From an uncultured Thermococci archaeon (GTDB taxonomy: Archaea; Methanobacteriota_B; Thermococci; Thermococcales; Thermococcaceae), in the NCBI GenBank assembly GCA_964487115.1, contig CAZAPD010000011.1, forward strand, positions 1-29,441: a stretch of DNA of 29,441 bases, given 5' to 3'. Of the stretch, positions 24,735 to 29,441 are shown one piece after another. How positions within the stretch are numbered: position 1 is the stretch's first letter; each line of letters starts with the position of its first letter. A program made the translations under genes and the position numbers. Under the pieces are notes generated by a model that saw nothing but the letters and a program-made list of their open reading frames with translations, was not told the origin of the DNA and searched no databases.

Positions 24735-24795
24735 AACTCCCATCTATCTTTGCGTTTTTCTTTTGCTCCATGTTTGCGGCGAGGATATGCCACTG

Positions 24796-25350
24796 CTAAT
24801 CAACCCGTCTCGAGTGTGGTTCACTGTGTCCTTCCTCCGTGGAAAGGTTATGGGGGGAGGCATTCATCTTCTCATTTTTTCGTACCATCCTGACCCATAT
24901 TCCGCTCTGACCGACCTTCCTGAAGCCATATTTCTCATAAAAACTGATAGCTCCTTCGTTTTTTTCCCCAACCCAGAGCTCTACCTTATCGTTATAGCGT
25001 TCCAGATACTCAAGACCCTTTTCCATGAGTTTATGCCCTATTCCGTGCCCCTGATATCTCTTATCAACGACGAACTCATGAATTGCCCCAACTACTTTGC
25101 CTTCATATCGGCTGAACCAGTCGTTGTCACATACTATGAAGCCCGCTATTTCATCATCAACCTTTGCAATGAAAAAGCCGTCTCTGGCCTTGCTCCAGCA
25201 CCATCTCAGGTAGCGTTTTGCATAACTCTCCCCTTCGCCCCCGTATTCTCTCATGCCCTCATAGCCTTTCATATATATCTCTATGAGTCTCTCCAGTGTC
25301 TCCTGATCAAGCTTCTCAAGTTTTTCTATCTTTACCTTTTTCTCCATCAT
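24796..25350 (-). CDS. GNAT family N-acetyltransferase (RimI-like)
   Basis: VDKRYQGHGIGHKL acetyl-CoA motif A and NEGAISFYEKYGF motif B. TATA about 25 bp upstream of the ATG with no RBS, so probably leaderless. Confidence 0.9.
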   Translation of the reverse strand: MMEKKVKIEKLEKLDQETLERLIEIYMKGYEGMREYGGEGESYAKRYLRWCWSKARDGFFIAKVDDEIAGFIVCDNDWFSRYEGKVVGAIHEFVVDKRYQGHGIGHKLMEKGLEYLERYNDKVELWVGEKNEGAISFYEKYGFRKVGQSGIWVRMVRKNEKMNASPHNLSTEEGHSEPHSRRVD

Positions 25351-25425
25351 CGTTCTGAATTTTGCAGGGATGGATTTATAAAAGCTAACCATAAATTTAA
25401 GCTCAGGAAGGAGAAGGTGGTTTTT

Positions 25426-25962
25426 ATGGGAAAAGCAAAGCCCAAAATCTGTGAAATTTGTGGGGCAACAATACGGGGACCGGGGCATACGATAAGAATA
25501 GAAGGTGCCGAGTTGCTCGTTTGCGATAATTGCTACAGGAAATACGGCAGGAAAAAGCCGGGAACCTTCAGTGTTATGCCAACTGGAAGGGAGCCGAGGA
25601 GGAGAGTTTATTCAAGACCAAGGTCGAAACCACAGCAGAAGCCTAAAAGGGAGAGGCCTTTATACAGCGAAGAAATTGTTGAAGACTACGCGGATAGGGT
25701 CATGAGAGCTATTCAGAGGAGTGGAAAAACCTATGAAGAACTTTCCCATGAAGTTGGCCTCTCAATGAATGATCTGAGAGCAATTGCCCACGGTTATCGT
25801 GAGCCCACGATAAAGGAAGCCAAAAAGCTGGAGAGGTATTTCAAAATAGTCCTTGTTGAAAAGGCTGAGGAGATACCCCGGGAGAAGGCTACGATACCCA
25901 GAGATTATGAACCAACCCTTGGAGACATAGCAAACATCAAAATCAGGAAGCGGAAGAAGTGA
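25426..25962 (+). CDS. mbf1: Archaeal multiprotein bridging factor 1 (Zn ribbon + HTH)
   Basis: True start MGKAKPKICEICG (ATG 25426, AGGTGG RBS). CEICG...VCDNC zinc ribbon, Cro-like HTH, terminal TLGD motif. Confidence 0.9.
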   Translation: MGKAKPKICEICGATIRGPGHTIRIEGAELLVCDNCYRKYGRKKPGTFSVMPTGREPRRRVYSRPRSKPQQKPKRERPLYSEEIVEDYADRVMRAIQRSGKTYEELSHEVGLSMNDLRAIAHGYREPTIKEAKKLERYFKIVLVEKAEEIPREKATIPRDYEPTLGDIANIKIRKRKK

Positions 25963-26502: not shown

Positions 26503-27075
26503 ATGGTAGATATGAGTAAGGTAAAGCTTAGAATTGAGAATATCGTCGCATCTGTTGACCTTTTTACGTCATTAAACCTTGAGAAAGTTATTGAGATATG
26601 CCCCAATTCAAAATACAACCCCGAGGAGTTCCCGGGGATAATCTGCCGCTTTGATGAACCGAAAGTTGCCCTCTTGATATTTAGCTCGGGAAAACTTGTC
26701 GTTACAGGAGCAAAAAGCGTGGAAGACATAGAAAGGGCTGTCCAGAAGCTCATCCAGATGCTTAAGAAAATCGGGGCAAAATTCGCTAGGGCTCCCCAAA
26801 TAGACATTCAGAACATGGTTTTCAGCGGTGATATAGGTATGGAGTTTAACCTTGATGCTGTTGCATTGAGTCTTCCGAACTGTGAATATGAGCCGGAGCA
26901 GTTTCCAGGCGTTATATACCGCGTTAAGGATCCAAGGGCTGTAATTCTGCTGTTCTCCTCTGGTAAAATCGTGTGTTCAGGTGCAAAGAGTGAACACGAT
27001 GCATGGGAAGCGGTTAGAAAGCTTCTCAGAGAGCTTGAGAAATATGGTTTAATCGAGGAAGAGGAGGAATTCTGA
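26503..27075 (+). CDS. tbp: TATA-box-binding protein
   Basis: Two repeats (YNPEEFPG / [23 protein letters not shown] / [15 protein letters not shown]) and an acidic tail. Confidence 0.98.
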
Positions 27076-27091: not shown

Positions 27092-28093
27092 ATGCTCCGT
27101 ATCTTTTATTCACCCGTTTTCCTGCAGCATAAAACCCCCAGTTATCATCCTGAAAGTCCAGAACGGCTTGAGATTGCCGTAAATGCCCTGAAGAAGCACG
27201 GTTTCTGGAGAAATGTGGCTGAGCCTGATATGCCTTCAGCTGATGAGCTTCTTAAAGTGCATTCGAGGGAATACGTTGAGATGATAAGGAACTCGTCAGA
27301 GGTATTTTCTCGGATTGATCCTGATACTTATGTCTCTCCGGGAACATGGAAAGCAGCGTTAAAGGCCTTTGGAGCATCTAAAGAGGCTGTGCTGTCAGCA
27401 TTGGAAGAAAAGGGACTTCATCTGGCACTCGTCAGACCTCCCGGACATCATGCCGGAAGATCTGGGAGGGCATTCAACGCTCCAACACTTGGATTTTGCA
27501 TCTTCAACAACATCGCAGGAGCGGCAAAGCTTGTTGAAGATCTTGAAGGAAAAGCAGTCATCATAGACTTTGATGCCCACCATGGTAACGGGACTCAGGA
27601 GATTTTCTGGAACGATCCCTATGTAATCCATATCGACCTTCATGAGAGGGATATTTATCCGTGGAGTGGCTATGAATATGAAGTGGGTGGGAAAGGAGCT
27701 GAAGGAAGCAAGATAAACATTCCAATGCCTCATTCCTCCACAGATGATGATTTTATCTATGCTTGGAACCAGGTTGTCCTTCCGATTCTGGAACAAATTA
27801 AACCAACGGTCGTTTTGGTCTCAGCAGGATTTGACGGCTTCGCTGGGGAAAACTTAACAACGCTGAAATTAAGCGGGAGATTTTTCCACTATGCAGGTTC
27901 CATTCTCTCAAAATACAGCCTCGCAGTGATTTTTGAGGGCGGGTATAGTGTTGGGCTGAGAAAGGGTCTGCCAGCTTTCATCGGAGCCTATCTTGACGGG
28001 AAGATAGAGGAGGAAAAAATTTCTCCAAGCTATGAAACTCTAAAAACAATTAGCAATGTGTGGGAAATACAAAGGGAATGGTGGAAGCTGTAG
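27092..28093 (+). CDS. Zn-dependent histone deacetylase family (HDAC/AcuC/AphA) amidohydrolase
   Basis: HPESPERL, RPPGHHA, GFCIFNN, DFDAHHGNGTQ, SAGFD and EGGY motifs, all intact. Confidence 0.93.
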   Translation: MLRIFYSPVFLQHKTPSYHPESPERLEIAVNALKKHGFWRNVAEPDMPSADELLKVHSREYVEMIRNSSEVFSRIDPDTYVSPGTWKAALKAFGASKEAVLSALEEKGLHLALVRPPGHHAGRSGRAFNAPTLGFCIFNNIAGAAKLVEDLEGKAVIIDFDAHHGNGTQEIFWNDPYVIHIDLHERDIYPWSGYEYEVGGKGAEGSKINIPMPHSSTDDDFIYAWNQVVLPILEQIKPTVVLVSAGFDGFAGENLTTLKLSGRFFHYAGSILSKYSLAVIFEGGYSVGLRKGLPAFIGAYLDGKIEEEKISPSYETLKTISNVWEIQREWWKL

Positions 28094-28128
28094 CTTACCC
28101 GGGGGTAAGTAACTTATTCGGGAGTAAA
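28094..28128. repeat. 35-bp element of two tandem 16-bp palindromes (copy 1, at the ATPase stop codon)
   Basis: CTTACCCGGGGGTAAG-TAA-CTTATTCGGGAGTAAA fills the entire gap between the two convergent stop codons. Confidence 0.85.
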
Positions 28129-29220
28129 TTACAGGCTTCTGACGACTTCAGCAACAATTGGATCAGGAATGGTATATCCACCTCCTGTTTTTTCAAGGTA
28201 ACCGTATTTGATGAGATTTTTTAACAACGCGGAGAACTTTGCATCGTTTACATGGCCGCTTTTGAGCTCAACATAGTCTCTTATCTCACTCCATCTGTGA
28301 TTTCCGAGCGCCACTGCCTTGAGGATAAAACCATAACGTCTGCTGTAGGACAAAAGCGCGGCCAACTCCTCTTTCACGAGTGCGTTGGCTTTTCTGAACA
28401 GTTCCTCAAGGGCCTCTTTCTCGGACAGTTTTCTAACACCCCGCAGATAGCCATACATGGTGAGCCAGCCAACTATACCATCAAGCCTATCAACGGTTTT
28501 TCTGATCTCTTCCCGGTTTGTTTTAATGCCAAGCTCCTCAAAGCCTTTAATAAGAAAGTCCTCGCTCTGCTTCCTTGTGAATCTCTCAAGCACAATCTCT
28601 CTGGCGTACCTTCCAAAAAGGGGCTTTTTCGGGTTATCAAGGCCGAGAAAGTTATGAAGCATACCGATCTCTGAGCCTGTGAGCACAAAGGTAATGTTTG
28701 GCAGATTATCCACAGCATATGCAATGACACCATCGTATTGAATTCCCGACAGGCGGAGATACTGTGCTTCGTCGAAGGCGAGAACAACCCTCGTTCCTTC
28801 CCTTTCTGCCCATGAGTTGATTTTCTCCAGAAGCTCATCAAACTCTGGCTTTTTCTCGAACTCCACATGAACCCCCGAGATGCGAATCCCCTTTATGGAA
28901 GCGAGTGCTCGTGTAAATCCAAGTCTGAACTTTCCACGAGGGGAAATTGACTTTAAGAGGGAACTCAGGATTCTCTTTGCTAGGATCTCCTGCGGGATTG
29001 AACCGTGCGTGAAGTACAGAGAGCGAACGTCTATTTTGGCGTGAGGCAGGCTTGACTCGGAGAGCGCCACGTTGAGTAGGGAACTCTTGCCCAGACGCCT
29101 TATCCCGAGAAGAAGAATGAGTCTCTCTCCGAGCCTTAAGGCATCGTTAAATTCATGGAGCTCCTTATCCCTATCATAGAGGTCTTCTCTCCTTGTCTTG
29201 GGTTGCAGATCAAACAGCAA
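28129..29220 (-). CDS. Archaeal STAND-type P-loop ATPase (ATPase_2 / PH-type) with C-terminal winged helix
   Basis: TTG start (MLFDLQPK...LYDR), Walker A GIRRLGKSS, Walker B VVLAFDEAQ, sensor FVLTGS, LFGR, DGIVGWL, and C-terminal WSEI...LKNLIKYGYL...YTIPDP. Confidence 0.9.
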   Translation of the reverse strand: MLFDLQPKTRREDLYDRDKELHEFNDALRLGERLILLLGIRRLGKSSLLNVALSESSLPHAKIDVRSLYFTHGSIPQEILAKRILSSLLKSISPRGKFRLGFTRALASIKGIRISGVHVEFEKKPEFDELLEKINSWAEREGTRVVLAFDEAQYLRLSGIQYDGVIAYAVDNLPNITFVLTGSEIGMLHNFLGLDNPKKPLFGRYAREIVLERFTRKQSEDFLIKGFEELGIKTNREEIRKTVDRLDGIVGWLTMYGYLRGVRKLSEKEALEELFRKANALVKEELAALLSYSRRYGFILKAVALGNHRWSEIRDYVELKSGHVNDAKFSALLKNLIKYGYLEKTGGGYTIPDPIVAEVVRSL

Positions 29221-29255
29221 CTTACCCCACCGTAAGTAACTTACCCAGGGGTAAG
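29221..29255. repeat. 35-bp element of two tandem 16-bp palindromes (copy 2, between the ATPase TATA box and start codon)
   Basis: CTTACCCCACCGTAAG-TAA-CTTACCCAGGGGTAAG; 26/35 identical to copy 1, with an identical 12-bp core GTAAGTAACTTA. Confidence 0.85.
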
Positions 29256-29269
29256 TTATAAAGGTTTCG
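29256..29269 (-). promoter_or_regulatory. BRE-TATA promoter of the ATPase gene
   Basis: Minus strand CGAAAC-CTTTATAA, 35 bp upstream of the TTG start. Confidence 0.7.
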
Positions 29270-29281
29270 AAAAATAAAGAG

Positions 29282-29441
29282 TCAGCTGAAGCTCGCGAAA
29301 CCTATCTCGTAGAGCTGGCGGAGCATGCGGAGGACTTTTTTAGCTGTGTGTTTGAAGTGGAAGTTGCTCTCGTACTTCTTCCAATTCGTGAGCATTTCGA
29401 TTATTGTCCTACTGTTCAGTTCTTCAATGTTCTGAGGCGAC
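29282..29441 (-). CDS. 3' end of an unidentified protein entering from beyond the window
   Basis: Open frame ...SPQNIEELNSRTIIEMLTNWKKYESNFHFKHTAKKVLRMLRQLYEIGFASFS*, followed by a T-rich terminator-like tract (TCTTTATTTTT on the minus strand). Confidence 0.7.
   Translation of the reverse strand, partial: SPQNIEELNSRTIIEMLTNWKKYESNFHFKHTAKKVLRMLRQLYEIGFASFS

Follow-up and report, generated by a model that had tools for sequence, protein, structure and literature searches.

Why does a single ATPase gene of a Thermococci archaeon lie exactly between two copies of one palindromic element? The window analyzed here, the whole 29,441-nucleotide stretch of DNA, encodes on its minus strand an ATPase with a winged helix (28129..29220), and a 35-bp twin element touches each end of this open reading frame. 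The 3' element (28094..28128) occupies the entire gap between the stop codon of a convergent HDAC-family gene (27092..28093, plus strand; the stop ends at 28093) and the stop codon of the ATPase gene. The 5' element (29221..29255) directly adjoins the ATPase start codon and reaches from there to the TATA box. The original prediction offered three explanations for the second copy: recombination sites that make the gene a movable cassette, paired operators bound by the ATPase's own winged helix, or control of an antisense transcript or of read-through from the convergent genes.

The positions and letters of both elements were confirmed, as were their abutment with both ends of the frame, their mutual identity of 26/35 and the TTA that follows each of them. 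The identity is equally 26/35 when one copy is inverted. Two details of the original description had to be amended. Each copy holds two 16-bp palindromic units at a 19-bp period, as proposed, but only one unit per copy is perfect (0 and 4 mismatches in the left copy, 2 and 0 in the right), and the asymmetric TAA spacer shared by the two copies is not conserved in relatives. An RBS-like GGTGGGG (29225-29231, minus strand) lies inside the gene-proximal unit of the 5' element. Outside this element is a BRE/TATA-like promoter (29256..29269, minus strand), called from the archaeal consensus and conserved in sequence among orthologues.

The encoded protein (363 aa, TTG start) scores 46.2 bits against Pfam ATPase_2, above the curated cut-off of 33.2. 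Residues 1-361 match PDB 2QEN (E 2e-66) and PDB 2FNA (SSO1545; E 2e-45) in full-length sequence matches, and the protein belongs to the same family of ATPase plus winged helix, PF01637, which we take to be part of the MNS clade of STAND. G44, K45, D150, E151 and R204 are invariant among 52 aligned homologues, with intact Walker A and Walker B motifs. A winged-helix profile covers the C-terminal residues 293-346 (28183..28344, minus strand). Within it, D326 (28243-28245, minus strand), the residue that covaries with the second base of the half-site, would lie in the recognition helix. Domain profiles detected neither a nuclease or other effector domain nor a transposase domain in the ATPase. 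Other members of PF01637 carry DUF234, whereas the window's protein does not; among the PADLOC models it gives weak matches only (PDC-S27, E 8e-8), and a DUF234-bearing relative matches strongly (E 4e-40). For both the gene and the element, NCBIfam, Rfam and a sigma-70/terminator scan, the last being ill suited to archaea, returned nothing.

The core motif CTTACCCnnGGGTAAG has exactly two perfect matches in the genome (2.06 Mb, 132 contigs), both at the ends of the ATPase gene. Twin arrangements with up to 8 mismatches occur three times in the 2.06 Mb, and two of these are the elements themselves. An identity of 26/35 between start and stop regions is reached by 3 of the genome's 1,368 ORFs of at least 200 aa, the matches of the other two looking like the starts of similar neighboring genes, and a search of the window allowing 3 mismatches gave 3 matches against 1.13 expected. 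Because both the 26/35 identity and the window count are weak alone, the case rests on the genome-wide uniqueness of the perfect motif and on its conservation. With at most one mismatch, the motif was found in 48 of 97 family genomes, compared with 10 of 97 for a reversed control. The 30 matching loci that were read comprised 21 at an orthologue, 5 orphan sites at the same locus and 4 unrelated positions. The outcome that the original prediction had named as contrary to it, a motif scattered through the genome independently of ATPase genes, was not seen: perfect copies occur only here, and 26 of the 30 loci are at the gene or its vacant place. The palindrome is thus neither spread through this genome nor scattered in the family genomes. 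No further convincing sites that would indicate a wider regulon were detected in the genome, so the protein's DNA target is probably only its own gene. A single near-match palindrome stands just before what is apparently the same gene in two genera (G000:C93:6696 and L020:1501), with a presumably purA-like start; it may be due to chance or be another regulator's site.

Twin or single palindromes of similar build precede the start codons of paralogues in relatives, with a sequence that differs from clade to clade. The same 5' pattern occurs in records labelled Thermoproteota, Bathyarchaeia, Nitrososphaeria, Hadesarchaea and Thermotogota. The half-sites follow the form A-[C/G]-T-nnn, and a G/C run occupies the centre of each unit. 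After rows with stops, short rows and duplicates had been removed, 149 genes were kept, of which 125 could be called and 24 were left uncalled. The residue aligned to D326 was D, E or G with aCt in 90/90 genes and N with aGt in 35/35. Both traits change 4 times on a tree built without the winged helix; the independent contrasts number 3 pairs, which all agree but are too few for significance (sign test p = 0.25). Read from the tree, three separate branches combine a K/R-N pair with an AGT/GGT triplet. These clade-specific sites and the residue-base covariation favor the operator part of the original prediction, in which the winged helix of the ATPase reads the elements, and we infer that the encoded protein reads its 5' site directly; looping of the gene, also part of that proposal, would be a possible further step. 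The hallmark of an autoregulatory operator, a palindromic site that overlaps the gene's own promoter and is specific to its ATPase clade, is present at the level of sequence. The 5' element is therefore likely to be such an operator, its position pointing to autorepression. Its arm positions are 95-100% conserved among 23 alleles.

Some paralogues depart from this pattern. On contigs C132, C130, C51, C3 and C66 of the window's own genome (G000), more distant ATPase_2 paralogues have AT-rich palindromes of a different build before their start codons. A clade-B gene cut by the contig end (G000:C63:1-360) has its own twin element; it also has a further, long palindrome upstream of the TATA box, which G013 and G040 share.

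The distribution of the 3' copy was assessed by scoring each stop region against the gene's own site, after 4 truncated loci had been dropped. Scores of 15-18 of 18 were reached in 33 of 88 genes, and none of the 444 in-gene control windows exceeded 14. The genes with a 3' copy fall in clades A (22), B (6), C (4) and G (1), each with its clade's own sequence, and nearly all belong to one genus. Of 45 scorable genes in records not labelled Thermococcales, 1 has a 3' copy; in clade D it was found in 0 of 22 distinct genes, and in clade B it is patchy. Orthologues without a 3' copy had been named as evidence against the original prediction, and here the result was divided: the 5/5 intact orthologues from two other genera lack it, but the 23/23 full clade-A alleles of the window's genus keep the 3' palindrome with at most 2 mismatches in its 10 arm bases. 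In these 23 alleles most arm positions of the gene-proximal 3' palindrome reach 91-100% conservation, with one arm base at 82%, and the spacer (56-69%) and third codon positions (65%) are conserved less; the centre bases of the element vary freely. The copy stays when the downstream neighbor changes. One subclade (L061, L069, L071, L072) has let it decay and kept the gene.

The two ends also resemble each other to different degrees in different alleles. The 3' copy is identical to the 5' copy at 39/39 positions in L340, 34/35 in L095 and 33/35 in L101, the RBS half included, and the number of units varies, with as many as 4 at the 5' end and 1-3 at the 3' end. These near-exact duplicates and the varying unit number indicate that sequence has passed between both ends more than once. 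The largest tandem arrays, with four 19-bp units at the 5' end and three at the 3' end (L246:1420-1500; L348:180-240), are either real expansions or assembly artefacts.

Relatives with an empty site that holds one copy were foreseen by the original prediction and were found, and presence/absence variation proved common. Empty alleles keeping one site occur at three loci, designated A, B and C. Locus A lies between iorB and HDAC/TBP. Among its 23 HDAC-bearing genomes without an orthologue, 8 clearly keep a leftover element, 1 is doubtful, 2 have broken genes, in 9 HDAC and iorB join cleanly, and 3 are of other kinds; a pattern search added 5 further orphan sites. Orphans make up 5 of 30 loci at locus B and 17 of 31 at locus C, including one in the window's own genome. 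In-silico excision of the ORF plus one element from full clade-C alleles reproduced the observed empty junctions in 4/4 pairs, which had been chosen for matching flanks. In several empty alleles the BRE/TATA-like promoter remains in the chromosome. Leftover sites consist of one or two units, with varied breakpoints and with or without the TATA box. Sites are still perfect in 4 of 9 HDAC-anchored orphans as against 18 of 23 full alleles, and several orphans found without bias have decayed. Because orphans often remain perfect, conservation of the element may not reflect binding.

Clade D, which has no 3' copy, retains intact orphan 5' elements at 4 of 10 loci checked. Orphans consequently do not require two copies and can be made by other deletions, and the idea that they need two copies was rejected. 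Orphans are plausible landing sites at which a 3' copy would first arise. In the clade-D orphans L357-L360 the element is perfect, and behind it lies a filler of about 40 nt, of two kinds, which was not shown to derive from the ORF, the shuffle support being borderline. At L074/L346, L327 and L331, internal ATPase deletions begin at the edge of the 5' palindrome, which suggests that the 5' element is a breakpoint hot spot. In L288, L291, L298 and L303 a gene of another ATPase clade lies immediately behind an orphan clade-C element, in convergent orientation; members of the family thus gather at these loci. The empty clade-C site of the window's own genome (G000:C106:141-155) is, with its 3' flank, 98% identical over 93 nt to the distant G017, which suggests a short transferred tract.

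Metagenome runs were examined as well. In run X1, the probable source metagenome, a 76-nt contig matches the window up to 28110 and then passes directly to 29257-29269 (joint 28110..29257), leaving one palindrome. Depth was 14.8 for the gene contig, 25 for the empty-allele contig and 52 and 46 for the flanks, values that do not equal shares of cells. On its right the contig offers just 13 unique letters where the bridging rule asks for 31, no joint was listed, and a SNP at 28078 is linked to it; for these reasons the empty allele is best read as a co-existing strain. The SNP points to a second strain rather than to excision within one clone. Run X2 covers both flanks and not the gene, although missing cover is no evidence of absence. 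No circle joint was found in X1, X2 or 19 metagenome loci, all searched as contigs, which drop rare forms. None of the full alleles read and none of the metagenome runs showed the ORF flipped with respect to its promoter, so that a flip switch is unsupported. ORF clustering, with a minority of the ORFs scanned against families, recognized no recombinase-like ORF in 32 neighborhoods. The gene had no match among plasmids, and among viral contigs there was one partial match.

Alleles with 3' copies occupy one locus per clade within the genus. The clade-A ATPase tree mostly follows those of HDAC and of TBP (26503..27075, plus strand), a backbone marker, so that inheritance in this clade is largely vertical; a few genomes are discordant. 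G064 shares 88% and 92% identity with G062 in the flanks and 70% in the ORF, and in G049 the lineage switches about 10 nt before the 3' element. These two short-window cases, to which no statistical test was applied, are suggestive only of ORF exchange bounded by the elements. A similar ORF swap in G034 was rejected, as its TBP agrees with its ATPase. The proposal of a movable cassette is thus upheld in part: loss between the copies is precise and there are hints of element-bounded exchange, but no circle, no recombinase and no movement to new sites was found.

The reading that we favor, with a probability of about 55%, is that the elements are clade-specific operators, likely bound by the winged helix of the protein whose gene they flank, that double as recombination repeats. 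The protein would occupy four half-sites per end and repress its own promoter, as suggested by a 5' site that extends from TATA box to start codon, and ATP-dependent contacts between proteins at both ends may bridge them. Crossing-over between 19-bp units, in or out of register, would excise the promoterless ORF, leave the promoter with one or two units, change the unit number and rewrite the 3' copy from the 5' copy. Allele exchange, or integration at an orphan site, would then probably restore full alleles. Host recombination in cells with many chromosome copies would probably excise, duplicate and exchange the ORF in this way, possibly helped by protein bridging; PMC4502288 gives 7-19 chromosome copies for T. 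kodakarensis. A bolder version, which we regard as possible but with the odds clearly against it, is that effector-less ATPase-winged-helix genes are self-addressed cassettes that combine a private palindromic code with an ATP-dependent synapse, and that bring about their own precise excision and their re-entry at cognate empty sites with no recombinase of their own. If true, such a gene would amount to a minimal element, mobile or phase-variable, whose protein-DNA code can be rewritten.

Several other explanations of the 3' copy have to be weighed against this reading. It is unlikely, although worth serious thought, that the copy is selected as an auxiliary operator for DNA looping and tighter autorepression, with excision as a one-way by-product and no re-entry. 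Conserved arms beside a varying spacer and varying third codon positions would be expected under it, as would mostly vertical inheritance, and the invariant R204 and Walker motifs fit ATP-dependent oligomers. Most family members nevertheless lack a 3' copy and one subclade has let it decay, and exact copies of the 5' element, RBS half included, together with the discordance of ORF and flanks, need recombination beyond deletion. Retention of a recognizable 3' palindrome in 23/23 full clade-A alleles, whose third codon positions are near saturation, and the decay of several orphans found without bias make it rather improbable that the copy has no function and is only a neutral scar left by an earlier duplication or re-integration. 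Conservation would then be only apparent, because palindromes and tandem units self-correct, and three observations agree with this: orphans that are perfect without the gene in clades C and D (found by exact pattern, and hence biased), the patchiness of the copy within clade B and the free variation of its centre bases.

The remaining readings fare worse. A promoterless ORF between palindromic sites, a promoter left behind and base-precise junctions would all suit true site-specific recombination sites, integron-like att sites served by a recombinase in trans, with the ATPase as a directionality or targeting factor. This is very unlikely, since the site sequence changes with the ATPase clade and tracks the winged helix, crossovers fall in different units with no single fixed crossover point, no cargo but the ATPase was seen between paired sites and ORF clustering recognized no recombinase-like ORF in the 32 neighborhoods. 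Control of antisense transcription or convergent read-through, with the 3' element as a protein roadblock or RNA hairpin, was the third explanation originally proposed, and it found no support. At the loci that have 3' copies, the usual downstream neighbor is indeed a convergent housekeeping gene (HDAC/TBP, RNA ligase, Lhr-like helicase or valine-tRNA ligase), but clade D abuts its convergent gene without a 3' copy in 22/22 cases, two clade-A orthologues do the same, and the element persists when the neighbor changes, its sequence following the ATPase clade and matching nothing in Rfam; we consider this explanation barely credible. The least probable reading is a selfish mini-origin made up of the gene and its sites, comparable to orc1/cdc6 beside ORBs, at which the replicative helicase would be loaded. 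The AAA-plus-winged-helix build and the G-run sites beside the gene agree with it, as does a link between STAND NTPases and the CDC6/Orc clade made in PMC8195603. However, hhalign against the genome's own Cdc6-like protein gave a probability of 1.2% (E 0.044), the PDB profile search returned no Orc1/Cdc6 chain, and between the sites lies only the ORF and no AT-rich unwinding element, the 5' site covering the promoter.

Placed beside known systems, the favored arrangement of operators that serve as repeats is apparently undescribed: it is like an autoregulated repressor, and partly like orc1/cdc6-ORB or an integron. The autoregulated repressor lambda CI is encoded between OL and OR, and likewise the regulator gene here lies between arrays of its own predicted sites, with the 5' array over the promoter. 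Here, however, the protein is an AAA-type ATPase and no second gene under its control was found; the arrays directly touch the start and stop codons, and deletion between the two is frequent. Integron cassettes are promoterless single ORFs with palindromic sites, whose promoter stays in the chromosome, and this likeness holds; in contrast to integrons, no IntI and no arrays of varied cargo were seen, the site is specific to the clade of the enclosed gene and the crossover varies. Neither the dedicated recombinase nor the fixed crossover point that define integrons was thus found, although a recombinase could act in trans. RAYT genes are flanked by their own REP palindromes. Both these and the ATPase-nuclease mobile elements of Zhang et al. 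2016, as cited in PMC8195603, resemble the present case in having a vertically kept gene between palindromes that differ by clade, but the present gene encodes neither a transposase nor a nuclease domain, and its palindrome is not dispersed in the genome. The transposase and varied target sites that mark transposons and insertion sequences were likewise absent from the gene and its loci. In PMC8195603, STAND NTPases are grouped within the CDC6/Orc clade, and a transposase-related origin is cited for them. According to PMC4595724, orc1/cdc6 genes adjoin their cognate ORB repeats; shared features are paralogue-specific G-run sites beside an ATPase-winged-helix gene and gain or loss as a unit, whereas the present sites cover a promoter and a stop codon. 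Neither a significant Cdc6 profile match nor an AT-rich region flanked by ORBs, as in Orc1/Cdc6-ORB systems, was found.

For the family of PF01637, 2QEN and 2FNA, the literature searched yielded neither a cognate DNA site nor a recognition code, and neither 3' copies nor empty alleles. Full-text searches gave no description of these sites, and they go unmentioned in the available parts of PMC4158269, PMC3632139, PMC5760070 and bioRxiv 10.64898/2026.01.04.697583; Zhang et al. 2016 and the SSO1545 structure paper may bear on novelty. This expanded archaeal ATPase family has two solved structures, with no DNA target or function found in the literature searched. From the present analysis each clade gains candidate cognate DNA, and one base of the half-site is predicted from one residue (D/E with aCt, N with aGt). 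The site of the 2QEN protein is predictable because this protein carries the clade-G motif EPRLY. The findings also point to a route for precise, recurrent presence and absence at fixed Thermococcales loci that have defence-like genes beside them. Should the ATPase turn out to promote its excision, it would connect mobile elements with autoregulated STAND/ORC-like ATPases, and the clade-specific pairs of protein and site would form a natural collection of heat-stable repressor-operator parts.

The surroundings of the gene vary as well. The HDAC-family gene is missing beside some orthologues. Upstream, the window ends in the 3' end of a McrB-like AAA gene (29282..29441, minus strand), which in relatives stands behind a DUF2357/PD-(D/E)XK gene. 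The module to which it belongs is variable, and the name McrBC-like is a putative one, taken from its domains. McrBC-like and ATPase-DUF234 genes are gained and lost beside these loci in the manner of small defence islands (29282-29441 of the window; L089:49-3914; L187:1858-3186). Elsewhere in the window, the 399-aa ORF at 24763-25962 probably has a much later start, as relatives match its C-terminal part only.
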